Of a DNA stretch of 64,000 nucleotides, positions 5,358 to 38,046 are shown piece after piece. Source of the stretch: Patescibacteria group bacterium (GTDB lineage: Bacteria > Patescibacteriota > Doudnabacteria > UBA920); the NCBI GenBank assembly GCA_036726225.1, contig DAIMCS010000004.1:21829-85828 (forward strand). The letters run 5' to 3'. Each line of letters begins with the position of its first letter. Position 1 is the stretch's first letter. The notes under the pieces are model-generated. The model did not search any database, was not told the DNA's origin, and saw only the letters and a program-made list of their open reading frames with translations. Position numbers and translations under genes: made by a program.

Positions 5358-5478
5358 CCCGTTAGAAGAAAATTAAAAATTGTATTTATAGACAAAAATC
5401 GAACAGATTGAAGAAAACTAATACCCGTTAAAAATATTAAACTTCTAACGGGATCCATTAGGTCATCTTATCATACAA

Positions 5479-5540
5479 TCATTTTATCATTCTAACATCC
5501 GATAATTTTTTTACTTGAATTTTGGCAAGATGATAAAATG
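5479..5540. repeat. Cargo-less inverted-repeat pair TCATTTTATCAT ... ATGATAAAATG, related to the repeats flanking the four-helix-bundle gene at 15224-15636
   Basis: Seen in sequence: TCATTTTATCATTCTAACAT at 5479 matches TCATTTTATCATCTTAACAT at 15224 (20/22). Its reverse complement GATGATAAAATG lies at 5529-5540, about 38 bp away. Confidence 0.45.
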
Positions 5541-5668
5541 TCAAAATATGCTTTATTTAAGCCATAAATCATTAATTTTCTTATAAATAAAGCCTCAACT
5601 GACAACTTGTGGATGAAAAACCTTGTCCCATAAAAGCATCCTTGCTAAACTAGTCAAAGATAAAAAAC

Positions 5669-6985
5669 ATGGACTTGCAAAATATAAAATATCGGCTTAC
5701 TAAAGCGAGAAAATTACTTTTCAAACTCTTTTTCTTCGCTCAATATTTCACTAAAAGACTGTTTTTCCAAATTAAGCGGCGCGCACCGCTTCTTAAGAAG
5801 CTCCATTTAGAAAGTTTTCCCGCCATCCATTTGAATAAAATGGATTGGATGGATTTTACACTCAAGTTCGCAGGCGAATTATTAGTATTGGTTTTGGCCC
5901 TAATGGTAGTGGGCTTAAACCTTTTTTATTTTGGAGGAGCCAAAGATTCTGTTTTTAAAGACTTTAGTTTGGCTTCGGTTTTCCTAAACCGCCACACCCA
6001 GCTAAACCCAAAGCTCTATGCCAAAAACAGCCAGGTGGTCACCGTGGTTTCCAGCGGCGGCCTGTTCCCCACTGCCTTGGCCGACGACTTTGCGGGCCTG
6101 GATAATTTAAACCTTGCTGCTTACAGCGCTGAATATGAAGATGAAAACTTATTGCTCGGCAACGAAAGCACTATTTTGGCCCCAAACCCGGACAGTGTCC
6201 AGAGCTTGATTGAAAAACAAATCCAGGTTTACCAAACCCAAAGCGGAGACACATTGGGCTCGGTGGCTCAAAAGTTCGGCATTAGCCAGCAAACCATTAT
6301 TTGGGCCAACAACCTGCCTTCCAACCTAATTAAGCCGGGCTGGTATTTGTTAGTTCTGCCGGTAGACGGTGTTGCGGTAAAAGCAGACAGCAACGACACC
6401 CTGCCCGATATTGCGGCCAAGTACAACCCTCAAAGGTACAACACGGACAAAAAAATTAGGGATGAAGCGGCCGAAAAACTGCTTGATAAAATTATTTCTT
6501 ATAACGCGCTGGAAAACGCCGAAGATATTGACGGCGGACAGGTTATTATAGTGCCCGGCGGGGCCATTACCCAGGCTCCGGCGGCCCCAAGACCGGTGAC
6601 ACAACCAAAGCCCACGGGCAGCGGAGCTTCCGACGTCGTAACCAGCATAGGCTCAGGCTATGACGGCATTGGTCACATTTTCCCCAAAGGTTACTGCACT
6701 TGGTATGTAGCTTCCCGCATGAAAATTACTTTTGGCGGCAACGCCAAAAACTGGTTAGCCAACGCCAAAAGCTCCGGTTATGTGGTTAAAGGGCCTTCTG
6801 AACCCTCGGCCAGGACAGCTGTAGTTACAACCGACGACAAACGCTTCGGCCACGTAGCCCTTGTAGAAGAGGTTACTGACACTGCCATCTTTGTCACGGA
6901 AATGAATTTTGTAGGCTTTAACAAAATTAGCCAACGCTGGATTCCGAGAAACAGCAAAACCATTCGGGGTTACATTTACCCATAA
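5669..6985 (+). CDS. Peptidoglycan hydrolase with two LysM domains and a C-terminal CHAP domain
   Basis: LysM-like segments (YQTQSGDTLGSVAQKFGIS, AVKADSNDTLPDIAAKYN). CHAP signature with Cys (GYCTWYVASR) and His (GHVALVEEV). N-terminal TM segment; the true start may be an internal Met. Confidence 0.75.
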   Translation: MDLQNIKYRLTKARKLLFKLFFFAQYFTKRLFFQIKRRAPLLKKLHLESFPAIHLNKMDWMDFTLKFAGELLVLVLALMVVGLNLFYFGGAKDSVFKDFSLASVFLNRHTQLNPKLYAKNSQVVTVVSSGGLFPTALADDFAGLDNLNLAAYSAEYEDENLLLGNESTILAPNPDSVQSLIEKQIQVYQTQSGDTLGSVAQKFGISQQTIIWANNLPSNLIKPGWYLLVLPVDGVAVKADSNDTLPDIAAKYNPQRYNTDKKIRDEAAEKLLDKIISYNALENAEDIDGGQVIIVPGGAITQAPAAPRPVTQPKPTGSGASDVVTSIGSGYDGIGHIFPKGYCTWYVASRMKITFGGNAKNWLANAKSSGYVVKGPSEPSARTAVVTTDDKRFGHVALVEEVTDTAIFVTEMNFVGFNKISQRWIPRNSKTIRGYIYP

Positions 6986-7080: not shown

Positions 7081-8913
7081 TTATTCCTGCACCGTTCCCT
7101 TATTAAAACCATCATTGCCCGGCAGGCTGCCGGTATTTAAATCTTTGGCGCTTGCGCTAACCTCTTGCAAAGTGAATGAATCTCTGGCCGTAAATTTAAT
7201 ATCTTTTAGCAAAACCGGGCTCGTGCCCACCTGGGTTTGATTCGGGTTAAACACCAACTGGAATTCCACGGCTTTAGCGGTAGTAAATTTGCCTGAAAAA
7301 GCGGGCAAGTTGCCAAAATTCCAGGTAAGCTTACCGGTGCTGGCATCGAAGTCTATTTTCTCGCCCGAACTTACGCTGGAACTCACAAAACTGCCAAAGC
7401 CAAGGGGAATATAAGCAGTAAGCTGGCCGTTGCCTAAGTCGTTACTGGAATTATTTAAAGCCAGTCTAACTTTGTAAGTGGTGGACAAACCCAGCTTTGG
7501 CGGGAGCTGCCCGGAAAAAAAGCTTAACGTTGCGTTAATGCTGGAGGGGCTGGAAATTTTAAAGCTTAGGCTGTTGCCCGGGAAAAACGACTCGTATTCG
7601 CTGGATTTAATTTTAATATTTGAAACCAAAGTTAAATTTTTAGAGGAATCTTTGGTGGCCGGGTCGCTAATTTTAAAATTAAAAGACAGCTGGCCGGACT
7701 CATTGGGCGCTAAAGTTTCCAGCTGCGAAACAGTGGACGCGTTCCAACTAATTGTGTTGTTGTTTATTTGCCCGCCCTCGGAACGGATTGAGCTTAAGTC
7801 AACGGCTTTAGAGTCTAAAGTAACGGAAATATTGACTCCATGGGCTAAAACACTGGAATTGTTCTGGTAGCGGACGCTGAAATTTAAAGTGTCTCCGGGG
7901 CTTGCAACGCCACTTAAATTTTCCGGATTCAGTCTTTGTTCCACCAGCAAAGGCAAATTGGATATTTCTGTTATAAAAGACGAGCTGTTTTGGACAAAAA
8001 ATTGCCCGCCGTCACCTAAAATTAAAAACTCTGCTGTCGCGGTTTTGTTCTGGCCAGGAATTGACGAGCTAAAAGTACCCTGGATTTGGATGCTGCCTGA
8101 AGCCGCCTCAGCCAAGGCGCCAATATCCCAGGTGTCAGAACCCAGGGAGGGTGAAGGATTAGCTGAAGCAAAAACAAACCCTTCAGGATATATCATTTTA
8201 ACTCTTGCGCTTTTTATTGCGGTATCAGAGTTGTTTTGGTATTTAATTAAATATTGGACTAATTGGGCATTGTTAGTGCTTGCCGGCCCTTCTAATTCAA
8301 TTATTACATTGGAAGCTACGAGGGTTATTTCGGACTGAGCCTGTTTAACAAATTCAGAATTAAAATTGGCGTATTTGTAATGAAGCTTAATTTCTAAAGT
8401 TTTTTTCTCATTTAAATTACCCGATGCCTTGGTTTTTACAAACACCACTGCGTTCTGGCCGGAAATTAAATCGGGCATTTCAAAAAGGCTGTGGGACAGG
8501 TTGGAAGCATTGGGACTGCTGCTTTGGTACACTACCCCGCTTGGATAAGCAAGCTCTAACTCTAAATCTACCAATTTTTGCGGGTCATTGTTTTGGACTG
8601 TAATTTTGTACACGGCCTCGCCTCCGCTGGGCACATTTTGCGGCACTTCCACTGAAATATTTACGTTAGCCTCTAAAACCGGAGCAGGTGCGCTGGGTTT
8701 GAACGCAAAATAGGCCAAAACCGAAATTAACACTACCCCAACAAAAATAGCCCAAAAATAAATCTTATTGGCTTTATAAAAACCAAAAAATCCCCCTCCT
8801 TGGAGCTGCTCCCTTACAAACGAGCCCGTGGACGTGTTTTCCACAGACTTGGTTACAAACCCTTGGTTAGAAACTGCTTTATTTGGTTCAGAATTATTTA
8901 TTTCTTCAGGCAT
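7081..8913 (-). CDS. Large cell-surface protein: N-terminal TM anchor and repetitive beta-rich extracellular domains
   Basis: TM helix (IYFWAIFVGVVLISVLAYFAF) then about 530 aa of Ser/Thr/Asn-rich repeats; no catalytic motif recognised. Confidence 0.55.
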   Translation of the reverse strand: MPEEINNSEPNKAVSNQGFVTKSVENTSTGSFVREQLQGGGFFGFYKANKIYFWAIFVGVVLISVLAYFAFKPSAPAPVLEANVNISVEVPQNVPSGGEAVYKITVQNNDPQKLVDLELELAYPSGVVYQSSSPNASNLSHSLFEMPDLISGQNAVVFVKTKASGNLNEKKTLEIKLHYKYANFNSEFVKQAQSEITLVASNVIIELEGPASTNNAQLVQYLIKYQNNSDTAIKSARVKMIYPEGFVFASANPSPSLGSDTWDIGALAEAASGSIQIQGTFSSSIPGQNKTATAEFLILGDGGQFFVQNSSSFITEISNLPLLVEQRLNPENLSGVASPGDTLNFSVRYQNNSSVLAHGVNISVTLDSKAVDLSSIRSEGGQINNNTISWNASTVSQLETLAPNESGQLSFNFKISDPATKDSSKNLTLVSNIKIKSSEYESFFPGNSLSFKISSPSSINATLSFFSGQLPPKLGLSTTYKVRLALNNSSNDLGNGQLTAYIPLGFGSFVSSSVSSGEKIDFDASTGKLTWNFGNLPAFSGKFTTAKAVEFQLVFNPNQTQVGTSPVLLKDIKFTARDSFTLQEVSASAKDLNTGSLPGNDGFNKGTVQE

Positions 8914-8926
8914 GGTCTTTCATTAA

Positions 8927-9691
8927 TTATAGCATATTTTCCTGTTTTAAATATTTTTCCGAATTAACCTTACGTTCCAATTGATTTTCTATAAACTGGG
9001 ACAGAAAAGTCTGCAGTGGGCCAATGCCCGGCAGCCCAAAAAGCGATGGAATTTCCGGAAAATTGCTGCTTTTCAGTTTTTTAAATAATTCATCGTTGCG
9101 GTCCGGAACACCTAATCCCGAAGCCTCCAGAATTCCAATTTTAAATTTCGCCAGGCCTAAATCTATAATTCTGTCCGGATAAGATTCGGGGTTAAACAAT
9201 AGTGTTCGACCTTGTGGAGAACCTATTGTTTGATCTTTGGCTCCATTAGCACTTCTCGACTTCGCTCGAAGACTATTTTGACATTCGTCATTTAAAAATT
9301 GTAAAAAATCCTGTAGCAGATTAAACAAAACTTCGTTTTTCTGCTCATCGGCAGTTATTTTTAAAGTCAGTTCTGTGGCGTAAAAAGCCGTCTTCATTGC
9401 CTGCAAATTTTCGCGTAAGTGATGATACACCTTTACTGTTTCGGCGGATATTATTTTCGGCATTTTTCCCAAAGTCAGCCTAACCTCCACTAAAAACAAA
9501 GCCTGCAGCTTTTGCTGCAGCTTTGACTTTGGCGATTTAACGGATTTTGCCAGGGCGCGGATTTTACCCTGTTCTTTTGTGAAAAAAGTAATAATTTCAT
9601 CCGCTTCTTTGTAAGCCTGTTTTTTGAGGATGATTGCGTGATAAGTTTGTTCTCTCATAAATACATCGAATCTACGAATAAGGCGAATCAA
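8927..9691 (-). CDS. recO: DNA repair protein RecO
   Basis: N-terminal OB-fold region (YHAIILKKQAYKEADEIITFFT) typical of RecO; length 254 aa; no Cys-rich zinc finger. Confidence 0.7.
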   Translation of the reverse strand: MIRLIRRFDVFMREQTYHAIILKKQAYKEADEIITFFTKEQGKIRALAKSVKSPKSKLQQKLQALFLVEVRLTLGKMPKIISAETVKVYHHLRENLQAMKTAFYATELTLKITADEQKNEVLFNLLQDFLQFLNDECQNSLRAKSRSANGAKDQTIGSPQGRTLLFNPESYPDRIIDLGLAKFKIGILEASGLGVPDRNDELFKKLKSSNFPEIPSLFGLPGIGPLQTFLSQFIENQLERKVNSEKYLKQENML

Positions 9692-9762
9692 CGAATAACA
9701 ACGAATTTACGAATTTTATAATTCGTAGCCCTTCGCAGATTCGTTCAATTCGTTGATTCGAA
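9665..9762. repeat. Imperfect palindrome of about six CGAAT pentamers followed by about five ATTCG pentamers, in the ileS-recO intergenic region
   Basis: Seen in sequence: tcgaatc tacgaat ggcgaat aacgaat aacgaat tacgaat | ttat | aattcgt ... attcgtt aattcgtt gattcgaag. The central 8-bp arms are perfect and the outer arms match cgaatcaacgaat / attcgttgattcg. Confidence 0.5.
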
Positions 9763-9767
9763 GTATT

Positions 9768-12700
9768 CTATATTTTTATCATACCCAGCCATATTGGCTT
9801 ACCTGAAATCTCTGCCTGGATTTCAAAATCCACCTCTACTTCCAGGCTTTTGTTAATTTGGTTTACAAAAGTTTTCTTGCGGTCAAGCCCGGAAAGCAGT
9901 GAACTTTCCAAAGATTCATCCTGGGTGTTGTAATACAAGTCCACCAGCTCCCCTACTTTAAGGCCGCTCTTTTTGCGCAAATCCTGAACCTGGCGTTCCA
10001 GTTCCCTGGCCACACCTTCTTGTTTTAATTCAGGAGTCAAATTCAAATCCAAATAAAAATTCTTAACAAACTTAGTGCCCGGCAAAACCTCCACGCCTTC
10101 GGGCCGCAAATCTTTATCCAGCAAAGCATTGTCAAGCTTTTTAACATTGAGTTCGGCCAAAATTAGTTCAACTAATTCTGAACTGAGCAATGTTTTTTCG
10201 TCCTGCAATTCAAAAGCAAAATTCGCAAGCGGTTGGCGCACGGGTAGGGATTTTTGTTTGCGCACGGCCAACCCCAAAGACACAATCTCCCTTACAATTT
10301 CCATATTAGTAAGCAACTGCCCGTCAGCAGCGTCTAGGGCGGGCGTCCAGCTTTCTAAATGCACCGAATCTTTTCCGGTAAGGTCGCGGTAAATGAATTC
10401 AGACAAAAACGGCATAAACGGAGCAAGCAGCTTTGCTAGCTCGGAGAGCACAAAACTTAAAGTAACCAGGGAATTATGGCCGTCCTCCCCGCCCAGCTTA
10501 ATTCTGTCACGGCTTCTTCTGACATACCAGGTGGATAGGTCGTTTATAAAATCTATAATTTCTTTACCCGCCCTTACGGTGTTGTAGTTATCCAAATTCC
10601 CGGTTACAGATTTATGCAATTCAGATAACCTGGCCATAACCCATTTGTCTAAAACGTTTTCTGACTGCCCGACTTTATGGTATTCCAGCTTCCTGCGCTC
10701 ATACAGCCTTAAAAAACTCCAGCAATTGTAAATTAGCGCGTTAACTTTGCGGCTTATTTCAAGTACGCCTTTTTCGCTGAAATTTAAATCTTCCCCGGTA
10801 ACTACCGGGCTAGAAAGCAAATAAAAACGCAAAGCATCCGCGCCGTATTTTTCTATCACCAAATTCGGGTCAGGATAATTATTTTTGGACTTGGACATTT
10901 TACTTCCGTCTTCGGCCAGAATTGTTCCGGTGGTAACCACATTTTTAAACGGCGCGTGGCCAAATAAAATTGTGCTAATAACATGCATAACGTAAAACCA
11001 AGCCCGGGTTTGGGGGATGTATTCCACAACAAAGTCTGAAGGAAACCTTTTTTCAAACAGGTCCTGGTTTTCAAAAGGCGCGTGTAATTCGGCAAAAGGC
11101 ATACTGCCGCTTTCCACCCAGCAATCAACAACTTCAGGCACACGATTCATTGGCCCGCCGCATTTTTCGCATTTAAACCTTATTTTATCAATGTAAGGCT
11201 TATGGAGGTCAATTTGGGTTTGGGTATCGGGATAAACCTCGGAATAATTTAAAGATTTTTCCTTAAGCTCGTTAATAGAACCCACACAAACAACATTTCT
11301 GCATTCTTTATTTTCACATTTCCAAAACGGCAAAGGCGTGGCCCAGTAGCGGTTGCGGGAAATATTCCAGTCCGGCGCATTTTCTATGCCCTGTTTAAAC
11401 CTGCCGTCCTTTAAATGCTCCGGGTACCAATTTATAGCCTCATTATTTTTAAGCAAATCGCCCTTTATTTCCTGAATATTAATAAACCAGGCAGGCAGCG
11501 CGTTATAAAAAAGCGGCGTGCCGCAACGGTAGCAGTGCGGGTAGCTGTGCAAATAACTTTCAGTTTTATAAACCAGGTTATTTGCCTTTAGCTCTTTGAG
11601 AACAATTTTGTCAGCGTCTTTAAAAAATACGCCCCGCAAATGTTCTGAAATGTTAGGCTGATTTAAATACCTGCCTTGGTGGTCCAGCATATCTTCTTTA
11701 GGCAAATTTTTCTCTTTGGCTAACTGGTAGTCTTCTTCACCATATAAAGCTGCGTTGTGGACTATGCCGGTACCGTCAGTGGTGGTTACAAAATCGGCCA
11801 CATAAATTTTGTGAGCCTTCGATGAATCTCCACTTCCGCGTGACTGCGCGGCTGCAGTGTTTTCCGCGTGATTCCGCGATGCTACAACACCCGGGTACAA
11901 AGGTTCGTATAAAAGCCCTTCCAGCGCAGCAGCCGGAAACTCTGTAACCATTTCGTATTCCCCTTCTATGACGGATAAACGGTCTTTAGCAAGAATGTAC
12001 CTCTCTTTTGTTTTTCCGCGTCTGTCCGCCGAAGCTTCAGCGAAGGCGGATGATTCCGCGCCTGTCCCGACGCTTGCGGTACGGGACTCCGATACTAACG
12101 TCGGAGCAGCAGCTTCCGCGTGATTCCGCGCCTCTTGCTCTATCATCACATAAGTTATTTCCGGTCCAATGTTGAGCGATGTATTTCCCGGCAAAGTCCA
12201 GGGTGTAGTTGTCCAGGCCAGCGCATAGGTGTTGTCGTTGGTTAAGTCGTTAATTATTCTTTGTCCTTTAGGCAGCTTGAATTTTGCGTACACCGATTCT
12301 TCCGTAACTTCGCGGTAGGAATTGTCCATAGCGACTTCAAAATTGGAAATTGGCGTTTCACAGCGTGAGCAATACAAAAGCACCTTACGGTCTTCGTAAA
12401 TTAAACCTTTATTCCAAATTTGCTTAAGCGCCCACCAGACACTTTCCATATAGGAAGTGTCCATAGTTTTGTAGGAATTATCAAAATCCACCCAGCGGGC
12501 AACCCGCTTAATGGTTTTACCCCACTCTTCTGCGTACCTTAAAACATTTTCCCGGCACTCCTGGTTAAACTTTTCTACACCAATTTCTTCAATTTGTTTT
12601 TTTCCGGAAATTTTTAGTTTTTGCTCCACAATATTTTCAATCGGCAAGCCGTGGCAGTCCCAACCCCAACGCCTGCGAACAAACCTGCCTTTCATGGTTT

Positions 12701-12981: not shown

Positions 12982-14730
12982 TTACATTTCCTCCGGCGCT
13001 TCAACTCCGAGCAAATATAACCCATTTTTTATTACTTGGGCGGTTGCCGTTATTAAATTAAAGCGAAATTCTTTCAATTGCTCATTAGTTTCGGCAAGCA
13101 CGGGAACTTGCTGGTAAAAATTGTTAAAACTTTGTGAGAGCTCAAATAAAAAATTACAAAGGTTATTGGGAAAATAATCTTGCGTTACCTGCTCAACTAT
13201 TTCCGGAAATTTAATTAATTTTCTTAATACCGCCAACTCAGAAGGTTCTAGCTGCAAGGTGCTGGGTTCAAAACTAAAACCTGAAACCTCCAACCTTGAG
13301 CCTTTTCTTAAAATCCCATGAATTCTGGCGTGTGTGTACTGCAAATACGGGCCCGTGTTACCTTCGAAAGACAGCGCTTTGTCCCAGGTAAAAGTAACTT
13401 CTGTTTTTCGGTTGTGCGAAAGGTCAAAATATTTTATGGCTGCAAGCGCAACTTTTTTCGCCACCTCTTCCTTATTTTCCAAGCCTGCATTTTTTTCTTC
13501 TATAATTTTTAAAGCTCTTTTGTCAGCTTCGTCCAGCACACTCCTAAGACTGACGGTTGTACCTTTACGCGTAGAAATTGCGCCTTCCGGCAAGGACATA
13601 AAGCCAACATCTACATGGACGCTGTCTGAATTCGCGGGATAACCGGCCAGTTCCAAAACTTTAAAAATTTGTTTGAAGTGATGTGTTTGCCGGTTGTCTA
13701 CTACATAAATATTTTTTTGGAAATTGAACTGCTGTTTTCTGTAAGTGTAAGTTGGCAAATCCCGTAAAAGATAGGTGGTTGCTCCGTCGCTTTTAACTAA
13801 AATAGCGCGGCCCAGTCCATATTGTTCTAAATCTACATACAATTCGCCCTGCTCGCCTTTGGTAATTAATTTTTTCTCCTCCAGCTCTGCCAAAACTTCC
13901 GGCATATGCTTTTCGTAAAAACTTTCACCTAAGTTATAGTCGAACGGAAAAACTTGAAGTTCGGCCCGGTAATTTTCAAAATCTTTTAGAGATTCGTCCA
14001 CAAACCATTTCCAAAGCTTTCGGTTTTGCTCGTCGCCGTCTTCTAATTTTTTAAATTCCTGCTTTGCCGCCTCGCGTAAGCTTGGGTCTGCCTCTATTTT
14101 CGCCGACATTTCTACGTATAAGCGATTCAGCTCGGTTATAGGGTCTTTTTCTAAAGCCACGCCGTCCGGCTTTAGTGTTTTGTAAGCGAGGATAAGAATT
14201 CCAAACTGCACTCCCCAATCGCCAATGTGCGTGTCGGAAATGGTCTTATACCCTTGGGATTTAAAAATCCGCAAAAGACAGTCGCCAATAACCGCGCTGC
14301 GTAAATGGCCAATATGCGGCGGCTTGGCTACATTGTTTTGGAAATATTCAACAATTATGTTTTTGCCTTGTCCGTTTAACGAGCACCCGTACAAATCCCT
14401 TTGCTCCAAAATAGCGCTAAGGTTTTTTAACAAAAAGCTTTTGGAAAGCTTAAAATTTACAAACCCGTTCTTTTCTTCCACAGCCTCAAAGATATTTTCG
14501 GTGTCCGCTTTTTTAACCTCTGCAATTAATTTGCCACTTACGTCTTTGGTGTCAATTTTGCCCTTTTTGGCCAATACCAAAGCTATGTTGGTTGCGTAAT
14601 CGCCAAACGCGCTGTCAGGCGTGCTAACCTCAATTTTGTCCACAAAAGGAGCAGCTTTTAACTCGGCAAGCGCTACTGAAAGCAAATGGGAAAGATAATT
14701 TTTGGTTGTTTCACTCCTCATAATGTTCAA
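12982..14730 (-). CDS. argS: Arginine--tRNA ligase
   Basis: HIGH motif region (PPHIGHLRSAVIGD); Arg-tRNA synthetase N-terminal and DALR-type C-terminal domains; 582 aa. Confidence 0.95.
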   Translation of the reverse strand: MNIMRSETTKNYLSHLLSVALAELKAAPFVDKIEVSTPDSAFGDYATNIALVLAKKGKIDTKDVSGKLIAEVKKADTENIFEAVEEKNGFVNFKLSKSFLLKNLSAILEQRDLYGCSLNGQGKNIIVEYFQNNVAKPPHIGHLRSAVIGDCLLRIFKSQGYKTISDTHIGDWGVQFGILILAYKTLKPDGVALEKDPITELNRLYVEMSAKIEADPSLREAAKQEFKKLEDGDEQNRKLWKWFVDESLKDFENYRAELQVFPFDYNLGESFYEKHMPEVLAELEEKKLITKGEQGELYVDLEQYGLGRAILVKSDGATTYLLRDLPTYTYRKQQFNFQKNIYVVDNRQTHHFKQIFKVLELAGYPANSDSVHVDVGFMSLPEGAISTRKGTTVSLRSVLDEADKRALKIIEEKNAGLENKEEVAKKVALAAIKYFDLSHNRKTEVTFTWDKALSFEGNTGPYLQYTHARIHGILRKGSRLEVSGFSFEPSTLQLEPSELAVLRKLIKFPEIVEQVTQDYFPNNLCNFLFELSQSFNNFYQQVPVLAETNEQLKEFRFNLITATAQVIKNGLYLLGVEAPEEM

Positions 14731-14784: not shown

Positions 14785-15216
14785 ATGCGCAGTTTCGCGG
14801 AAAATAGAAGGGCAAAATTTGACTACGACATTAAAGAAAGCTTTGATGCCGGTTTAGTTTTGTCCGGCGCAGAAGTTAAAAGCATAAAAGGTGGGAATGT
14901 GTCTTTAGAGGGTTCATACGTAAGTGTTTCGGCTAACGGAGCCAATTTAATTAACTGCCATATTGGCCCTTACAAATACGCCCCCAATGAAAAGTATAAC
15001 CCCACACAGCCACGAGCCCTGCTTTTAAACAAACACGAGATAAACCAAATGTTAGGCAAAGAAAAAGGCTTAACCGTTATTCCGTTAGAAATTTATTTAG
15101 GCAAGCGAGGGCTTTTAAAAATTAGAATCGGCTTGGGCAAAGCGCGGAAAAAAACCGACAAAAGGGAATACATAAAAAAACGAGAAGCCCAAAAAGAAAT
15201 TCGCAGCTCATACTAA
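14785..15216 (+). CDS. smpB: SsrA-binding protein SmpB
   Basis: Conserved SmpB segments (NRRAKFDY, GLVLSGAEVKS, CHIGPY) and basic C-terminal tail. Confidence 0.9.
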   Translation: MRSFAENRRAKFDYDIKESFDAGLVLSGAEVKSIKGGNVSLEGSYVSVSANGANLINCHIGPYKYAPNEKYNPTQPRALLLNKHEINQMLGKEKGLTVIPLEIYLGKRGLLKIRIGLGKARKKTDKREYIKKREAQKEIRSSY

Positions 15217-15223
15217 CATACTA

Positions 15224-15636
15224 TCATTTTATCATCTTAACATGGAACAAAAGCAAAATAATTACTTCGAGCAAATAAAAAACAAAATGGATTTATATGT
15301 CCATTTTGTATACCAATTAACTAAAAAATTTCCTAAAGAAGAGCTATACGGATGTACTTCTCAGCTCCGTCGCTCAACCCTTTCAGTTGTTTTAAACTTC
15401 ATTGAAGGCTTTGCAAGAAGAAAAATTGCAGTAAAAAGAAACTTCTGGGAAACTTCCTATGGCTCTTTACAAGAATCCAAATATTTGTTGAATTTTTGCT
15501 TTGTTGAAAAATATATTCAACAAGATGACTATAAAAAGGCGGCCGGAATGGCGGAAGAAATCGGAGCAATGCTTTGGCGTGCCTTGGAGCCTTTGTCTGA
15601 ATGATAAAATGTTAAAATGATACGATGATAAAATGA
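15224..15636. mobile_element. Small cassette: four-helix-bundle protein gene flanked by 13-16 bp terminal inverted repeats (TCATTTTATCATC)
   Basis: Left TCATTTTATCATCTTA at 15224-15239; the reverse complement of the right end (15621-15636) is TCATTTTATCATCGTA. An extra ATGATAAAATG copy overlaps the stop codon at 15601. Confidence 0.45.
15242..15604 (+). CDS. Four-helix-bundle protein (TIGR02436-like, the '23S rRNA intervening-sequence protein' family)
   Basis: About 120 aa with a family-typical core: LYGCTSQLRRSTLSVVLNFIEGFAR. Confidence 0.75.
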   Translation: MEQKQNNYFEQIKNKMDLYVHFVYQLTKKFPKEELYGCTSQLRRSTLSVVLNFIEGFARRKIAVKRNFWETSYGSLQESKYLLNFCFVEKYIQQDDYKKAAGMAEEIGAMLWRALEPLSE

Positions 15637-15854
15637 AACCGAGCACCAAAGAAAAACTATATATTTTAGTAATAATTTTTCTAATTGGCATTAGTGCCCA
15701 GTTCTATTACACTTATAGTTACGAGCCAAATAATAGAATACAAGTTTACTATAACCAGGAGCGGGCGCTAAATACGGAACTCATAAGTCTAATTCGTGAC
15801 GCGGATGAATTTGTATATTTCGGGGTTTACACTTTTACGAGAGCGTATTCGTAA
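15633..15854 (+). pseudogene. N-terminal fragment of a PLD/Nuc-family (HKD) protein, truncated by the GC-rich island
   Basis: TM/signal segment, then LIRDADEFVYFGVYTFT typical of the start of a Nuc-like PLD domain. It stops right where GC content jumps, and the matching C-terminal fragment lies at 22374-22526. Confidence 0.6.
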
Positions 15855-15948
15855 TTCCAGAATGCTTGCCTTTAGCCTAGTAGCAGCGTTGCCTGCTCCT
15901 CCTGTAAATGCGAGTGAATCGGTGAAGCGGCTTTGGCGCGAATCGACT

Positions 15949-16272
15949 TCAATGGTATGAGATTACGTATAAGACTCGGCTTCGACCCAGATCATTCACC
16001 AGCGTGAGATATCGGTGGCCTTTGCGAAACGCCTTTTCATCGACTCCAATGTGCGTCACCGGTTCCGCTTTCCGTCGCTTCAGCCCACGTTTGACCGCGC
16101 GATCCATGATGCCGTGAATTTCATCCCAACTCAGATGAAGCTGTTCAGCAACCGCCTTCTGACTGGCCACCTTCAACCAATCGATCGCCAACCGTTCAAA
16201 CAGTGCGGTGAATCGGCTACCCGGCTCCGCCCAGGAGAGCTTCACCACTTTAACCCCGTGCTCGACCGGCAA
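15949..16272 (-). pseudogene. ISL3-family transposase fragment (HTH region and start of the DDE domain)
   Basis: HIGVDEKAFRKGHRYLTLVNDL matches the start of DDE_Tnp_ISL3; TTG-initiated with a TGA two codons upstream; lacks the catalytic core and C-terminus. Confidence 0.65.
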
Positions 16273-16390
16273 ACTTCAGCGAGCTGAGGATCAGTTTTCT
16301 GTGGGGAGGGAGTGGAAGGCTCTGTTTTGCCGGAAGTTTCGTAGATTGGTTTCAGGAAAGATTGAGGGCTCACCAGTGTGGAGGAAAACA

Positions 16391-16813
16391 CTACGAATTT
16401 CGTCGCTTTATCCCATATTTCTCATACCAACCATATGTCTTGAGCCACTGATACAACGCATCTCGACTAATTCCAAGCAACTGCGACGCCTCTCCAACCT
16501 CTTTGGTTACTTCAAAAACACGGGTAATTAGCCATTGTTTTAAGAGTTTGTCATGCTCTCTAAATTCTAACTTGCCCAACCGAATGTCCTCACCTGTAGG
16601 AGCCTGTATTAAAAAGTCACGACTGCAGCTCTCGACTTGTTCACGAATCTTCATCGCGTGTCTATGGAGCCCATCATGCTCGACGACCCCCTTGAGTTGC
16701 TCCCAAATCTGAAGCTGATTCTTAGCGCTGAGGATGTCCTGAGTCTCCACGTAGGTTCGCGCCAAGTATAAGGAGAGTACGGCCCTCAATTTTGCATCCG
16801 GCATTCGAGGCAT
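16391..16813 (-). CDS. Hypothetical protein with a C-terminal Fis-type helix-turn-helix
   Basis: ASQLLGISRDALYQWLKTYG resembles the HTH_8/Fis DNA-binding motif; no AAA+ motif in the flanking ORFs. Confidence 0.35.
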   Translation of the reverse strand: MPRMPDAKLRAVLSLYLARTYVETQDILSAKNQLQIWEQLKGVVEHDGLHRHAMKIREQVESCSRDFLIQAPTGEDIRLGKLEFREHDKLLKQWLITRVFEVTKEVGEASQLLGISRDALYQWLKTYGWYEKYGIKRRNS

Positions 16814-17917
16814 AAACGAATCTTGCGGTGAAGGACCCTGCTTTCACTCCGCTGTGATGTACTTGACTCGCGATGAAGGTTGCAAAAAACAGCCTCACCA
16901 TCTCGCACGCACAATCGTGCCCTTTCAGTTTGCCCGAGATAGTCATATACCTGCGACAGGAGACAGCGCAATTCTACTTGCGGTATTAGAGCCCCGTCCC
17001 AATGGCCGTCAGCGACAGAACGAGGTATAACCCACCCAAAAAGCGAATTGGCAAGGTGCGTCGTTTCTTTTACAGCCAACCGACCGTGATGCCAGGCATT
17101 CGCCAACTTCTCGTAGGACGACTTGTGATCCTCCAGCCGGTCAGTGGTTTCTTCAGGCCATTTGACGAATCGATTTTCTTCTTTCACATGGAATCCGTTG
17201 TAGGAGCCACCGACATTTCACATCAGTTTAATCAATCACTATTGAAAACCCTTGATTTCACGATGTCAAGAAAACCTAGAGTTTGTCATTTTTGTCGACA
17301 AATCCCTTGAAGCTTTTGAGATGGCATTTGCGATAGTGTTAAGTGTTTCGGGATTGGTTGACCAGAGGCTTCGAGTCCAGCGTTCCTTGAACTTCCTCTG
17401 TCTTTGTAAAGTCCCCCGACGTTTATGGTGCTTTGGCTCGTGTTCTGGCCAGGGCAACATGTTATGAGCTTTCTGGCAGCCTGAAGCGGATGCGGTGTCG
17501 GAAAGCTTAACGTATTTCGCAATTCTTAAGAACAGGCTTTGTCCTTCGCTGGTAAGGAATTCTGTTTGTAATGGATTCGAGACAAAGACTTGACTAGCTC
17601 GTGATTTGCTATTTGCTGAATTGGTCCTTCTGTTGCTGGCAGCGTCGCGCCTTGTAGTGTGTCTGAAACTTGACAGACGTGGACTTAATGCTGTACATTG
17701 AGCGCAAGGTATTGGGATTAATTCATTTGCAAGATACTGCCTATAGTGTTCTTGTCTCTGAGGTAAGAGATTTGGTTCTTGTCGCAGTTCGGGATCTTCG
17801 GCGCTCTCAGGTCTTGCTTCGCCGGCCATGCTCAAACAGGCCACCGTTCCCCAACCCTTCCTTTAGCCCGTACCATTTCCGTTTGACGTACCCAGAAGCA
17901 GAAGGAGGAATCTTGCA

Positions 17918-18427
17918 ATGTTAGGGCGAACTGTGATCTTTACGGCCGCGGGTTTGTTGCTGTTAGGCGGTTTGACAACCACTGCCGGCTTATTAGCCAC
18001 AGCGGTTGCTGTTGGCCAGCAGCGACCCGCATGGCCGCCACCATTACTGCCAGGTTATTCGTATGCACAACCGAGACATCCTGGACATCGGTGGGCGATG
18101 GTTAAATATCGTACACCCGTTAAGTTTCAGGACGCAGCTATAGAGATCTTACTCGACTCGTCTGTTTCCACGCCTGCCCTCCGCAAGGTGGAAATTCGGG
18201 ATGTAGGCAACTCCGTGGTGGCGACGAAAGAGTGGAGCGCTACTACCGTCGAGGGAACTGTTCAAAGTCAGGCTTTCTATCAGTATCGGATCAGGGATAT
18301 CTTCTCAAGTGTTCCGCCACCGAGCGCAGCTGAAACTCGAACTCGAACTTATGTAGTTCGCATATCGGCTTTCGATCGCCGCGAGGTCATAGAAACGATG
18401 GAGTTTCGGCTGGAACTCGTCCCATAG
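17918..18427 (+). CDS. Hypothetical secreted protein (island cargo)
   Basis: Hydrophobic N-terminal signal/TM region; GC-rich codon usage; no motif recognised. Confidence 0.35.
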   Translation: MLGRTVIFTAAGLLLLGGLTTTAGLLATAVAVGQQRPAWPPPLLPGYSYAQPRHPGHRWAMVKYRTPVKFQDAAIEILLDSSVSTPALRKVEIRDVGNSVVATKEWSATTVEGTVQSQAFYQYRIRDIFSSVPPPSAAETRTRTYVVRISAFDRREVIETMEFRLELVP

Positions 18428-18540
18428 GTCGGTTAAAGAACGTTCTTTGGTAGAACGTTCTTTTTTTGGTTCTCAGTTTCCCAAGAGACCACCCTCCTTC
18501 AGCAGCAACAAGCAAGTACAGGTTTAAGAAAATATGGAGC

Positions 18541-19275
18541 ATGGAGCGGAAATTGCGTCTGCTGATTCTAAATGTAATTGTTTTACTTAGCATACTGCTT
18601 GCGAGTTTTTCTCACCGCACGGCAGAAACGCAAACACCGCAAGCTCAGAACAGCCCAGCTTCTACGCGGCCCTATTGCTATTCAATTTTCGGTAGAAGAC
18701 CGATTCCAATGGTTACGTACCAACTAATATTGTCTTCCAAGGTTGCTATGCCTAATGCCTGGACTACTGCAGTATCAAATGCAGCGACCGAATGGAATAT
18801 GGTTGGGACGGCGTTTACGCTAACAGGGGGGAATACGATTATTCTCGCGACGGACGATACTGTGATTCGCGTACCCGGCGGCAACGTTTTGATCCAAAGG
18901 GGAAATGCAATACAAGCCACTATCGCCGGTACAACTATTACGATTTCCGTCGCGCTCACAGATGAAGAATTACGTTCTACCCAAATTGGTGCGAGCGTTG
19001 CAACAACTTCAACCGAATTCAACGAACTTACTCGTGCTGTTTTCAGCAGAGAGATAGTTGTGAACGGACGGGCAAACTGGATACTAACCGGCGCTATACC
19101 CACAAACGGGTTCGACCTTCAAGGCGTGGTTGCGCATGAGTTTGGACATATCGCCGGTTTGGCAAATGTGTCATGTCCTGGGCCCGTTATGCAGGAAACC
19201 ATAGAACCTGGGCAACCACGCAGACTCACGGATGACGATAGACAAGCTCTCAGGCAAATTTATCCATCTAAGTGA
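18541..19275 (+). CDS. Secreted zinc metalloprotease-like protein (HEXXH, metzincin/snapalysin-like)
   Basis: Signal peptide after MERKLRLLILNVIVLLSILLASF; motif VVAHEFGHIAGLAN. The track ORF starts at 18466, but the internal Met at 18541 fits the signal peptide better. Confidence 0.55.
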   Translation: MERKLRLLILNVIVLLSILLASFSHRTAETQTPQAQNSPASTRPYCYSIFGRRPIPMVTYQLILSSKVAMPNAWTTAVSNAATEWNMVGTAFTLTGGNTIILATDDTVIRVPGGNVLIQRGNAIQATIAGTTITISVALTDEELRSTQIGASVATTSTEFNELTRAVFSREIVVNGRANWILTGAIPTNGFDLQGVVAHEFGHIAGLANVSCPGPVMQETIEPGQPRRLTDDDRQALRQIYPSK

Positions 19276-19370
19276 GAGAGACAATTCCCTAATCGAGAAA
19301 ACCCTTCTTGATTCATCGAAGCGTGTTCAATCGTCGCCCCGAAAAAAGGCTCTTCCGGGTTTTTAGTGGG

Positions 19371-19763
19371 TTACGGAGCCAGATCCAGCCCGCCACAGTG
19401 GAAGTAAATCGCATTGATGAAGTTCCTCTGATTGCGGAATCCGCGTGCCGTGTACTTCACCCACTGGATCTTGGCGTTCAAGGATTCGCTGGCCGCATTG
19501 GTGATCCGATGTTTGATAAACGTCAGAATATTTTCGAGACGACGTTTCAGCATGCGACCGGCTTCGATCATTGGCTTCAAGCGGCAGCGTGAAGCCCAGC
19601 TATACCAGCGGTCGAAGAATGACCGTGCCGCTCCGGTATAAACATACGTGAACAGGGTCGTGTAGTACTTGCGGAAGCAGTGGATGGCTGTTGGCCACCG
19701 GTTTGGGCTGCCATTCAGCAGAACGAAGCGTTCGGTAAATCCCTTATCGAAGATGTCGCTCAT
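19371..19763 (-). pseudogene. ISL3-family transposase C-terminal fragment
   Basis: WYSWASRCRLKPM, ITNAASESLNAKIQWVKYTARGFRNQRNFINAIYFHCGGL match the DDE_Tnp_ISL3 C-terminal region. It lies upstream on the strand of the N-terminal fragment, so the two pieces are not contiguous. Confidence 0.65.
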
Positions 19764-19908
19764 GGCAACTTTTTCGGAAGACAGGCTAATTCGTTGCCGT
19801 CGACTGAGGTTGAACTTGCGGATCTATACATTTGGGTGGTCCGGCGATATCCATATAGCGTCGAGCTCTGTCAGCAGTAGCCGGTCCCGTTCCTGCAAGA
19901 CTAATCCA

Positions 19909-21315
19909 TCATTGCCAGTCATCCAGCGCCTCCTCGGTGGACAGCGCCAAGGCGGCCCTGACGTTGATATCGTGCTCGATCTCTGAGCGGGGCATGGCCC
20001 ATCGTCCACGGCATCGCGAAAGCAAATCTCCAGAGGAGGGCAATGCCTTGATCTCCGGCACTTGAATTTGCGACCAGCGATAGGAGCCGCTTTTGACAAT
20101 CATTTGACGGTGAGGCAGGTGGCGGAGCAGTTCAGATAGCTGCTTTCCGCCACCCAGGGCTGATGCCATCTTGCTGGCATCATCGCTGGAAAGCTGAAAC
20201 AGAACGTGCGTGCCGACAGCAAGGATTGCGGCCTTCATCTGCGGTGGATATTGCTCCAAGAATTGGTTGGCCGAGACGACTGAAATGCCGAACTTCCTGG
20301 CTTCGGACAACAGTGTGTCGATGCCGGCGTCGAAGGTCACGAGATTCTGGATTTCGTCGCAATAGAGCGTAAAAACCCTCCTCGATTTTCTTCGAAAAAT
20401 CGCATGCTTGAGCTTGGCAAGAAATAGGCTGCCCAAGGTCGACGCCTGTTCGCCCAAACGGCCTTTGTCCAGGTTGAGAATGATCCAGTAGCCGTTATCC
20501 ATCGCATCGAGTAGAGAAAAACTCGAGTGCTCCTGACCCAAGATGTGGCGAAAGTGCGGGTCCGCGGTAAACGCCGTCGTCTTATTCAACACCGCCTCCC
20601 TAAATGCAGCCTGCATCCCCTCGCTGATTCGGTCATATCGCGTCTCGAAATATCGGCGGACTTCAGGATTGCGAACATGCTCCAGGCATGCTGTCCGAAA
20701 GGCGGAATGAGTCAGCAGCGGTGCGATCTCAAGGAACGTGAGACGGCTTTCCGACAAGACATACAGTGCGTTCCTGAGCAGCTCTTCTGTCCTGGCCCCC
20801 AACGCGTCCAGATGCCAGCGTTGTTTCAGTATCTGTGCGAACTCCGAAATCTGGACGAAATTGGAATCGGCTGCTTTGGGCTGTTCGAGGACATTGAGAC
20901 CGACGGAGTAGCGGGGATCACCCGGTTCGATGACGATCAGCTTTTGAGTTAGGTCCTCATTACGCGATCGTTCCCTTTGCGCGATGGCCGCGAGCAGGAA
21001 GCTTTGAGCGTCGCCATGGAGATCGAAGAAGACAAAACCGCGATTGGCCTCGATGTCCTGCAAAACAAAATGTTTGAGCAGAGTCGACTTGCCCGTGCCC
21101 GTCTTGCCCAACACAGCGATGTGCTCCGGCCGACGAGCGTGCGGTAACAACGACATTGAAGGATGGAGCGGCAGTATGCTGGCCCGTCCCAGTTTGGATC
21201 GTCTCCGCGACGATGCGACAAAAGGAAGTTTTGATGCCGTACTGCTCAATGATGTAGACCGCCTAGCCCGCGATGTTGCGCATTTGGGAATAATCAAGCG
21301 GGGTTTCGAGAGCAA
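19909..21315 (-). CDS. TraD/TraG/VirD4-like conjugative coupling-type P-loop ATPase (soluble form lacking an N-terminal TM domain)
   Basis: Walker A LGKTGTGKST; Walker B-like FVFFDLHGDA; C-terminal LYCDEIQNL...ARKFGISVVSANQ typical of the T4SS DNA-transfer (TraD/HerA-like) ATPase domain. Confidence 0.55.
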   Translation of the reverse strand: MLSKPRLIIPKCATSRARRSTSLSSTASKLPFVASSRRRSKLGRASILPLHPSMSLLPHARRPEHIAVLGKTGTGKSTLLKHFVLQDIEANRGFVFFDLHGDAQSFLLAAIAQRERSRNEDLTQKLIVIEPGDPRYSVGLNVLEQPKAADSNFVQISEFAQILKQRWHLDALGARTEELLRNALYVLSESRLTFLEIAPLLTHSAFRTACLEHVRNPEVRRYFETRYDRISEGMQAAFREAVLNKTTAFTADPHFRHILGQEHSSFSLLDAMDNGYWIILNLDKGRLGEQASTLGSLFLAKLKHAIFRRKSRRVFTLYCDEIQNLVTFDAGIDTLLSEARKFGISVVSANQFLEQYPPQMKAAILAVGTHVLFQLSSDDASKMASALGGGKQLSELLRHLPHRQMIVKSGSYRWSQIQVPEIKALPSSGDLLSRCRGRWAMPRSEIEHDINVRAALALSTEEALDDWQ

Positions 21316-22374
21316 ACACGTTCAGTTGGTCTTTCGCAAATTGCCTTCAGACAACAGTCCCACGTACAACCTGATGGTCAATATCCTCGGCAGTTTCGCT
21401 GAGTTCGAGCGGGAACAAATTCTTGATCGAATGCGCCGAGGCAAACGCCACAAGGTGGAGGTCCGAAAACAATATGTCGGCTGCATCGCTCCTTACGGCT
21501 ATCGATACCAAGTCGGTAGTGCAACGGTCGGCCGCGAAGCTCAGATCGAGATCATCTCCAAGGAAGCCGAAGCCGTAAAGAAGATTTACACTTGGGCATC
21601 GGCGGGCATTTCAATGAAAAGAATTGCACGCAACCTCGACGAATTGGGTGTGCCAACACGAACTGGCAGGCCCGCCTGGGCTGCCAGCATCGTTCATCGG
21701 ATCCTCCATAACGAAACGTATGCTGGTGTCTGGTCCTACTGCAAACTGGAGGCATGCGAACCGATCCGTCCAAAAATCCGCACTACATATAGACGCATTT
21801 CGCGCTCGAGTCGTCGGCGGATGCGCTGGAATCGATTATGTGGACGTCCCTACGGGAGGCTCTTTTGAACCCGAAACACTTGAAGCAGCGAATTCTCAGG
21901 GCGCGAAACCGGATTGCAAAGGAAGGCGCTGCGGCCACTAAGACCCAAACTTCCGTTGAAAAGCTCGACGAAGACACTCGTCTGATCCAGCGCTATCGCT
22001 CCGGTGTCATCACAGCGCAAGAATTAACAAATGGTCTCGAGGCTATAAAAGCTCGTCGTCAGGAGCATCGAGCCGATCATTCCAATAAGCAGAGTCGAAA
22101 TCACCCATGGCCCGGGATTACAAAGATGTGTCGTCGCTTGGCAAAACGACTGGAAGATCCCGCGCCAGCATCGCGCCAACAAATATTCCGGGACTTAATC
22201 GACGAAGCTACGGTCTTTGTCGATGAGGTGAGAATCCGCGGCAAGATTACCGCTGAGTCTCTGAGCGGTAGTACGGTCGTTAACCAAATGGCAGGAACAC
22301 GCGAAAATCTGATGGCGATTCAATCTGCGAATGAATTGTCTTGTGAGATTGCATCATCTCAATCAAGGTTTTAG
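21176..22374 (+). pseudogene. Large serine recombinase, 5'-truncated and frameshifted
   Basis: Frame A (to 21868) has the resolvase-domain C-terminal half (LDRLRDD, DRLARDVAHLGIIKRGFESKHVQLVF, ILGSFAEFEREQILDRMRRGKR) and the recombinase domain. Frame B (21838-22374) has the coiled-coil tail. The catalytic-Ser N-terminus is missing and overlaps the TraD-like gene. Confidence 0.6.
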
Positions 22375-22526
22375 TGACTGAAAAGGCTTATGCTTCGGGT
22401 TCGTTTAACTGGACAGCGGCGGCAACCAATTTGAATGACGAAGTGCTGGAAATAGGTTATGATGAAGCCGTGAGGCAAAAATACCAAAATATTTTGGAAG
22501 AAATATTTAAAAAATATAATAACTAA
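22374..22526 (+). pseudogene. C-terminal fragment of the same PLD/Nuc-family gene (carries the GSxNxT part of the HKD motif)
   Basis: Translation TEKAYASGSFNWTAAATNLNDEVLEIGYDEAVRQKYQNILEEIFKKYNN begins exactly at the island's right edge. Confidence 0.6.
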
Positions 22527-32221: not shown

Positions 32222-32872
32222 CTAAACCTTCTTCCACTCCACGAGCTTGCCCGCTGCAATTTCTATTTTGTCCGCCCTTCTAAGATGGCGGATTTGTTTT
32301 TTATTTAAAATTTTAAAATGCTTAATCTTGTCCAGCTTGTGCGGGATAGCAAAAAGGTTTTTGGCCGATGTCCGCCAGTTAAGTTTGTCAAAATATGCAA
32401 GGTCAAAAAGATGGGAATATTCCCTCAAGGTTTTTTTTCCGTTGTCTAAAAAATATTCGTGGAAAAAAGAAAGCGCCAATTCCCTTACAGTTTTATAAAT
32501 TGGCTCCCGATAGCGCAAAACTCCGTGGTTAGTCTTGGAAATTGCGCCGTAGCAGCCAAATTGCTTAAAAACGGCCACCACATGATCGTCATCATAAGGC
32601 TTAGCCGAACGAAGGTCTAAAACATACGGCCGCGCCCCGTTAAATTCCAAAACCGCGGCCGCAAACATTGCCCCTTCCATACAGTGCGCTTTTTGGGTTT
32701 TTATAACAAAACGGGGCGACATACACGTCTCCCCGCCCTTTTCAAAGTTGATTTTTATGGAATTCAAATAATCCTGAATTTTTTTGGGCGAATTCAGTTT
32801 CTTAAACAGTAAAAGTTCATTCTTGGAATAGGCAAATTTGTTGCTTGTCACTTGTAACCTGTTACTTGTCAC
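32222..32872 (-). CDS. Hypothetical protein with a possible Cys/His/Asp papain-like fold
   Basis: Only CMEGAMFAAAVLE ... DDDHVVAVF ... NHGVL spacing noted; weak. Confidence 0.3.
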   Translation of the reverse strand: MTSNRLQVTSNKFAYSKNELLLFKKLNSPKKIQDYLNSIKINFEKGGETCMSPRFVIKTQKAHCMEGAMFAAAVLEFNGARPYVLDLRSAKPYDDDHVVAVFKQFGCYGAISKTNHGVLRYREPIYKTVRELALSFFHEYFLDNGKKTLREYSHLFDLAYFDKLNWRTSAKNLFAIPHKLDKIKHFKILNKKQIRHLRRADKIEIAAGKLVEWKKV

Positions 32873-38011: not shown

Positions 38012-38046
38012 TTGTTAATCGTAAATTGTCAATTGTATGTTTTGTT

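Follow-up and report, generated by a model that had tools for sequence, protein, structure and literature searches.

Proteins of the four-helix-bundle (FHB) family, also called "23S IVS proteins", are encoded in intervening sequences (IVSs) of 23S rRNA, such as the one found in helix 45 in Coxiella. This IVS carries a homologous S23p open reading frame (ORF) and a 28-bp terminal stem that is cut by RNase III; directly upstream of the ORF stand three tandem copies of GACAGAT and one of GACAGAA, in a number that varies between strains (PMC4990558). The ORF is dispensable and decays in some strains, and the heptamers are presented as a local oddity rather than as the unit from which both arms are built (PMC4990558). 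Here we describe an FHB gene at positions 15242-15604 (+) of a 64,000-nucleotide stretch of DNA from a Patescibacteria group bacterium (contig DAIMCS010000004.1; the whole stretch is called the window below), which lies between two inverted arrays of 8-bp units. The same array-ORF-array layout recurs in many phyla, with lineage-specific units that match between the two arms and a variable copy number; orthologous sites exist without the gene, near-identical elements occupy unrelated contexts, and a second gene family, GxxExxY, is carried as cargo in the same manner. We give about an even chance to the view that this is a free-standing relative of the IVSs that bear an ORF in 23S rRNA, with a PF05635 ORF in the loop of a long imperfect hairpin whose arms are the arrays.

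Short tandem units of this kind have been described in other settings. Xanthomonas genomes contain 70-75 convergent inverted pairs of GGGAATC heptamer arrays each, read as G-quadruplex formers by Rehm et al. (2015, PMC4692102), who also described related heptamer repeats in Nostoc; a term search of that paper gave no mention of S23 or "four helix". In Beggiatoaceae, TAACTGA heptamers adjoin start codons (MacGregor, PMC4679880). The Xanthomonas pairs resemble the arrays in the window in being made of tandem short intergenic units, in their frequent inverted pairing and in their capacity to form stem-loops; their repeat length varies between species with the repeat type kept, and XCC0516 and its orthologues lie inside one such pair. 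The units themselves differ, being 7 nt and G-rich in Xanthomonas and 8 nt and AT-rich in the window. The TAACTGA repeats and the short tandemly repeated repetitive (STRR) heptamers of cyanobacteria are likewise intergenic tandem units that often end at start codons, although they have been described mainly as direct repeats and with no cargo gene noted. MITEs (miniature transposable elements with inverted repeats) and the repetitive extragenic palindromes and mosaic elements (REP/BIME) share with the window small intergenic inverted repeats, gene-less versions and presence or absence between relatives; unlike them, the element described here has arms of tandem, lineage-specific 7-8-nt units and few copies in the window, and no target-site duplication, transposase or REP-associated transposase (RAYT) was seen. 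In open-access full text, we found no paper linking FHB or GxxExxY genes with flanking arrays, except for the note on the Coxiella heptamers, and an earlier description elsewhere is possible; the family-wide tie of these genes to inverted 7-8-nt arrays appears to be undescribed.

The gene and its two arms in the window

The gene order at the locus is argS (12982-14730, -), smpB (14785-15216, +), the 120-aa FHB ORF (15242-15604, +) and a PLD-like gene starting at 15633. The original prediction, made from the letters and their ORFs, had named the FHB product TIGR02436-like, and profile searches agree: it scores 80.2 bits with TIGR02436 (cutoff 24) and 85.9 bits with PF05635 (cutoff 33.8), and a phmmer comparison aligns residues 9-97 with XCC0516 of known structure (PDB 2GSC, chain A; E = 3.2e-10). 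The protein is also Avd-like, in that it shares the FHB superfamily with the Avd proteins of diversity-generating retroelements, but it matches the two Avd profiles weakly and below their curated cutoffs (NF033474, 33.8 bits against 80; PF22296, 29.6 bits against 40). No reverse-transcriptase Pfam domain is recorded among the genes up to 10 kb on either side, no template/variable repeat pair was found over the same distance, and PADLOC gave no match that would make the element part of a defence system. The 64 kb contain no rRNA, so that the element, placed between smpB and the PLD-like gene, is not an insertion in an rRNA helix.

That prediction had also placed the gene between 16-bp terminal inverted repeats. 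The words are indeed present, TCATTTTATCATCTTA at 15224-15239 and TACGATGATAAAATGA at 15621-15636, the latter agreeing with the reverse complement of the former at 15 of 16 positions, and so is the extra copy of ATGATAAAATG (15601-15611) that was said to overlap the stop codon (TGA, 15602-15604). Tandem Repeats Finder at lenient settings and a direct scan for units reveal, however, that these "ends" are parts of two inverted tandem arrays of five 8-bp units each, the unit of which differs by lineage. The left arm (15204-15243, -) reads, from 15243 to 15204, ATGTTAAG ATGATAAA ATGATAGT ATGTTAGT ATGAGCTG; it overlaps the last codons of smpB and its stop TAA (15214-15216) and abuts the FHB start codon. 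The right arm (15601-15640, +) reads ATGATAAA ATGTTAAA ATGATACG ATGATAAA ATGAAACC; its first unit overlaps the FHB stop, and its last ATG, at 15633, is the start of the PLD-like gene. Because the arrays reach from the smpB stop to the FHB start and from the FHB stop to the PLD-like start, they constitute the entire intergenic DNA of the locus.

When 15200-15645 is folded as RNA, the terminal stem is made of the two arrays, in the minimum-free-energy as well as the centroid structure (z = -3.95, 0/100 shuffles). The paired segments in both folds are 15217-15243 and 15605-15640, and the ORF lies in the loop, as in an IVS-like stem. The right arm has a further property: its units 2-4 are 3-codon mini-ORFs (ATG-NNN-NNN-TGA), in which each TGA overlaps the next ATG, and the chain ends on the start codon at 15633, whereas the mini-ORF of unit 1 (MIKC) stops at a TAA. 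Judged from the letters, such a chain could hand ribosomes over to the downstream gene, an idea that is limited to the ATG-type units of this clade.

The cargo-less pair with like ends that had been proposed at 5479-5540 is also there, with TCATTTTATCATTCTAACAT at 5479-5498 and GATGATAAAATG at 5529-5540. It consists of a long arm (5451-5498, -) of six 8-bp units, ATGTTAGA ATGATAAA ATGATTGT ATGATAAG ATGACCTA ATGGATCC, a spacer or "loop" of 31 nt (5499-5529), and a short arm (5530-5545, +) of two units, ATGATAAA ATGTCAAA. The pair lies between divergent genes, the long arm being directed at uvrD/pcrA (start 5357) and the short arm at a LysM-CHAP gene (start 5669). Between the pair and the uvrD start there is a terminator-like hairpin at 5424-5452 (-), CCCGTTAGAAG...TTTTTAACGGG followed by a T-run, where any transcript crossing the pair would be expected to end.

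Could these arrays be ordinary promoter or operator words, the pairs being divergent or chance matches in AT-rich DNA? The ATGATAAAAT word does contain an extended -10 element (TGnTAAAAT), TGATAAAAT resembles one, and a TTTACT-18-TAAAAT match at 5510-5539, weakly promoter-like and overlapping the short arm, faces the LysM-CHAP gene from a pair that sits between divergent genes. Against this, matches to the promoter consensus in 5200-5800 were not above the expectation from shuffles and there were none on 15600-15640, a promoter in the left arm (15204-15243) would point into smpB in the antisense direction, and the same architecture is built elsewhere from units that are unlike promoters (GACAGAA, GGGAATC, ACGCGTA). 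The motif is, moreover, confined to two loci. ATGATAAAATG occurs exactly five times in the 64 kb, always within 5480-5540 or 15225-15635; with one mismatch there are 7 matches (2.3 expected), and the 16-mer with up to three mismatches also gives 7 (1.0 expected), a number that in neither case was reached in any of 100 shuffles. The word is more than a chance match and, judged from the 64 kb, is no common genome word, the finding that the original prediction had named as refuting it. We consider the promoter reading very improbable, and it was rejected on the lack of enrichment in the consensus scans and the absence of any match on the right arm.

Arrays beside the gene family across phyla

A scan of species-representative genomes produced 80 loci with FHB homologues 35-77% identical. 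In the 30 closest loci, the flanks of which were inspected, arrays of 7-8-nt units mostly lie upstream of the gene and their reverse complement downstream, and the unit differs by lineage (CATTTTAA, CATTTAAA, CACAGAAT, CAAAAAAA, CGTGAAG, ACGCATA and others). The inverted-repeat score of the flanks was above every shuffle in 24 of 29 flank pairs, taken from the window and 28 loci of close homologues. Distant homologues in Planctomycetota, Ignavibacteria, Omnitrophota, Bacteroidota, Proteobacteria, Atribacteria and other Patescibacteria behave likewise, with units that include GACAGAA/GACAGAG, GCAAGAG, GAAGCTG/GAAGTTA and CAAGTAA/CAAGGAA. The first of these types, which is near the Coxiella heptamer, flanks many of the homologues found in the scan.

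In numbers, arrays adjoin 79 of 82 FHB genes, which come from Patescibacteria, Planctomycetota, Bacteroidota, Cyanobacteria, Xanthomonas and others: they were detected on both sides of 55, on one side of 24 and on neither side of 3. Of 317 other genes from these loci, taken as controls, 47 have arrays on both sides (odds ratio 11.7, p = 1e-19); the inverted-repeat scores of the flanks also separate FHB from control genes (p = 3e-20). The period was 7 in 75 arms and 8 in 54 of the 129 arms measured, with almost nothing else, and an arm contains 3 to 19 units (median 5.1, mode 4-5). The expectation that other FHB genes would carry the same ends thus holds for the layout, which is family-wide, and fails for the sequence of the unit, which is lineage-specific; what usually match are the two arms of one locus. 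In some loci (L018, L020, L035 and L084-L089) the ORF is found inside one arm and not at the centre.

The genomic setting of the genes is also informative. In 67 of 73 cases the FHB gene and the gene upstream of it point the same way (80% baseline, p = 0.004), and the FHB gene is hosted by conserved gene pairs or clusters such as accB-accC, cas10-cmr3 and smpB-PLD; both features fit an IVS-like mechanism in which the cassette is transcribed by read-through. Copies on cyanobacterial plasmids are flanked by heptamer arrays in the same layout. One of them, on a Picosynechococcus plasmid (NZ_CP016476, L103), lies within a type III-B CRISPR operon, where the FHB gene and its inverted GAGGAGATAAG-type arrays separate cas10/cmr2 from cmr3. 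At another locus, L025, two FHB genes (5001-5354 and 6524-6874) are separated by about 1.2 kb, and each has a separate array pair (AAGAAAGC/TTGCTTTT and AAAATCAC/TGTGTTTT).

As for Xanthomonas, the prediction that an XCC0516-type gene should lie inside the published GGGAATC repeat was tested and borne out in X. citri and X. campestris (L104-L107). The orthologues lie between accB and accC, with GGGAATC GGGAGTG GAGAATC GGGAATC upstream and CCCATTC CCCATTC TCGACTC CCTATTC downstream, the latter running into the accC start. In X. citri, the FHB ORF as called continues across the right arm as far as the start codon of accC, which it overlaps. The window locus is itself an inverted pair of the GGGAATC type, that is, two convergent intergenic short-unit arrays, with a period of 8 and not 7.

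FHB genes are not the only cargo. At L072, a gene of the TIGR04256 GxxExxY family (PD-(D/E)XK-like) occupies 8501-8896 between inverted arrays, and inverted arrays flank all nine GxxExxY homologues fetched from metagenomes (L091-L099), of which eight share 65-79% identity with the copy in L072; the units are mostly of the GACGCGAAA / TTTCGCGTC type. Most of the GxxExxY copies are located between an upstream terminator-like hairpin and the ribosome-binding site of the next gene.

These counts bring up another explanation, namely that the arrays are iterons, bound as RNA or DNA by a pentameric ring of the FHB protein with one 7-8-nt unit per subunit, as operator or in autoregulation of the TRAP type, the hairpin being secondary. 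Avd, an FHB homologue, works in a nucleic-acid-binding complex. The Xanthomonas homologue is described as a homopentameric toroid, as quoted in PMC4990558, which is suggestive next to a median of 5.1 units per arm and a mode of 4-5; a unit sequence and period that are specific to the lineage and common to both arms, together with the unit-level conservation without compensating changes discussed below, would also suit such a binder. The explanation is less at ease with arms that run from 3 to 19 units, with gene-less and GxxExxY-bearing pairs that have the same layout and no FHB gene, and with proteins 73-77% identical that adjoin visibly different units; and, the arms being complementary, a protein that binds single strands could not recognise the two of them. 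On balance we regard it as unlikely.

Gene-less sites, array turnover and possible movement

Five related genomes (the window and L011-L014) share the ileS-argS / smpB neighbourhood, with ArgS proteins 53-63% identical, and they permit the comparison of orthologous smpB loci that had been suggested for this element. The order smpB-FHB-PLD is seen in the window, L012 and L014. In L011, smpB is followed by a gene-less pair (about 12 + 11 units, with a loop of ~9 nt and a unit order that, by eye, is not mirrored between the arms), then by the PLD-like gene and only then by array-FHB-array. In L013, a gene-less pair of a different unit (CTAATTNA) separates smpB from the PLD-like gene, and the FHB copy (4989-5345) lies between argS and ileS with an in-frame TAG, which makes it probably a pseudogene, matching the ORF decay reported for the Coxiella IVS (PMC4990558). 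L014, in turn, shows a gene-less pair between argS and ileS, the place of the gene in L013, and in L028 an FHB cassette is situated directly upstream of uvrD, the site of the gene-less pair in the window. Presence and absence of the gene thus coincide with the repeats, and the indel between filled and gene-less smpB sites is essentially the ORF alone.

Mobility or turnover is also suggested by Planctomycetota, where elements 90-93% identical over ~430 nt, arrays included, have flanks that are unrelated or ~75% identical. In two Sedimentisphaerales genomes they stand after a tRNA, in Phycisphaerae and Pirellulales genomes after a protein-coding gene, and their arrays contain from 4 to ~14 units. 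In four Bacteroidota genomes (L084, L086, L088, L089), the ORF is ~99.5% identical against an overall locus identity of 91-94%; it is embedded in one arm, the left, of a larger array hairpin, and the array upstream of it is hypervariable in the number and sequence of its units. The comparative data argue for horizontal spread or homing, whether of the whole cassette or of the ORF alone, and for fast turnover of the arrays. The movement would be slow, given that the FHB site is kept in three of the five related genomes and the accB-accC site in both Xanthomonas species.

One way to account for such patterns is that the ORF alone moves. Array hairpins would then be independent and abundant intergenic elements, and FHB and GxxExxY genes would home into their loops, either through the arrays as homology arms or through a break made by the cargo. 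This is a possibility of some weight, though well below even. Gene-less pairs do occur in orthologous spacers, and in several genomes they occupy many consecutive ones; the filled and empty smpB sites differ essentially by the ORF; the ORF can sit within one arm, as noted above, and at L084-L089 it is more conserved than the whole locus at the same site. Of the 70-75 inverted pairs in a Xanthomonas genome (PMC4692102), one is where the FHB locus examined sits. GxxExxY proteins, being PD-(D/E)XK-like, might make the break; for FHB proteins we know of no nuclease activity. Two further observations speak against homing. In Coxiella the heptamers are part of the IVS, and the rRNA helix around it carries no arrays itself (PMC4990558); and where a genome has different FHB paralogues (L045, L063, L069, L072), each is matched with a separate unit type, which suggests that arrays and ORF travel together.

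Another way is that of the original prediction, a small non-autonomous transposon with terminal inverted repeats (TIRs) and a MITE-like deletion derivative. What stands of it is a discrete unit bracketed by inverted repeats, with a gene-less partner, a position that varies among relatives, and near-identical planctomycetal elements in unrelated flanks; what falls is its nature as a TIR transposon. Instead of shared, defined TIRs, the ends are degenerate tandem arrays whose unit differs between homologous elements, and completely so between lineages, a misfit with recognition by one conserved transposase. No transposase linked to the element was seen in roughly 100 loci examined, and the target-site duplications that had been proposed as a check were not seen by inspection at 15204/15640 or 5451/5545, where the arrays have no sharp outer borders and run into the ends of coding sequences. 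Only two loci with the unit exist in the 64 kb, and the Xanthomonas site has been stable over long periods. A classical TIR element is therefore quite improbable.

The density of array pairs varies: L011 and L014 have several per 10 kb, as against the two loci with the FHB-locus unit in the window. The window also holds arrays of other unit families. Between ileS and recO, a second gene-less inverted hairpin (9660-9774) is made of CGAATnnn about six times and then nnnATTCG about five times, an architecture like that of the FHB locus with a different unit; as RNA, 9655-9780 folds strongly (z = -6.3), and the conserved cores of its units pair. Arrays with one arm only, made of 7-9-nt TTGTCAC/TTGTAAC-type units, are present at 2338-2385, 32838-32873, 38006-38036 and 56325-56357 (+); they lie beside or inside minus-strand genes, and no inverted partner was found nearby.

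With regard to the gene downstream of the FHB locus, a GC-rich island of ~6.5 kb (15846-22349; 50-54% GC compared with about 41%) interrupts the PLD-like gene: the stretch 15642-15845 corresponds to residues 6-75 of the protein, and 22350-22520 to residues 127-183. Fragments of ISL3 transposase, an M10 peptidase and a TrwB-like ATPase are encoded in the island, with a serine recombinase at its right end, and shorter forms of the island occur on contigs from other samples (L004, L005).

A proposed free-standing hairpin of the IVS type

The best reading of the arms is that they are inverted short-unit arrays, of 8 bp in the window and of 7 bp in most other lineages, and not the ends of a classical TIR transposon or MITE. 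As in the ORF-bearing 23S IVSs of Coxiella (S23p) and Leptospira, a PF05635 ORF is in the loop of a stem of terminal repeats; unlike those, the window element lies outside rRNA and has 8-nt arrays on both sides, and its excision by RNase III, shown for Coxiella and others, is proposed by analogy. The IVS mechanism is the sole experimentally grounded one for an array-hairpin architecture, and it is extended to the window element by that same analogy.

How might such a cassette work? Transcription would reach it by read-through of the host gene that precedes it, smpB in the window, and its arms would pair in the transcript into a stem of the kind that RNase III cuts in IVSs. Cleavage of the stem could render the cassette harmless in operon spacers or rRNA helices, and the mRNA of the cassette would be set free by it. 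Slippage may lengthen and shorten the arrays, with the two arms homogenised against each other, and the cassette, or the ORF alone, may pass slowly from one array hairpin to another, not with the help of a transposase but by recombination or in a homing-like process. Pairs that have no gene would be either ORF-less derivatives or unoccupied hairpins.

Several results weigh against this IVS-type reading. The gene-less pair at 5447-5550 folds weakly (z = -1.1), and in the strong 9655-9780 hairpin the variable positions of the units are unpaired, with no compensating change. Over 56 loci, arm mismatches compatible with G.U pairing (65) were not in excess of A.C mismatches (85), so that there is no signal specific to RNA. 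Rfam, at both gathering and E-value thresholds, placed no family on the element in the window or on any of the 12 related loci searched, and a plain stem model has no explanation for the 7-8-nt periodicity. The 10 contigs fetched for the window protein, of 23 that carry it, are all clonal with the window and hence uninformative on variation of array copy number within the species. RNase III processing, read-through transcription and movement in the window organism are what we infer from the comparison with described systems.

The lack of a G.U excess and the unpaired variable positions indicate that conservation acts on the unit, and the complementarity of the arms may be kept at the level of the unit or of the DNA. 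Binding by an FHB pentamer and homing of the ORF both stay alive for this reason.

A broader proposal follows the same lines, and we put it forward tentatively, as a rather doubtful one: FHB and GxxExxY genes with inverted 7-8-nt arrays would be one widespread, unrecognised class of hairpin elements, of which the rRNA IVSs would be the rRNA-borne members and the gene-less pairs the relics or landing sites. The excess of heptamer repeats in prokaryotes would be largely the footprint of this class, and the period would be set by the cargo, through one unit per subunit of an FHB pentamer or through a PD-(D/E)XK homing cut.

If this were true, a single architecture would unite the function of the FHB family, the origin of the rRNA IVSs and the excess of 7-nt tandem repeats in bacterial intergenic DNA. 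These three puzzles have been with us for decades, and the window element, read together with ~100 related loci, joins them all. Should the arrays be the binding or homing sites of the FHB protein, the family would gain a function, and the accB-FHB-accC locus of Xanthomonas, for which the protein structure is already solved, is a tractable system for the test. As for the Patescibacteria, where the arrays form whole intergenic spacers, the finding matters for gene calling and for operon models.

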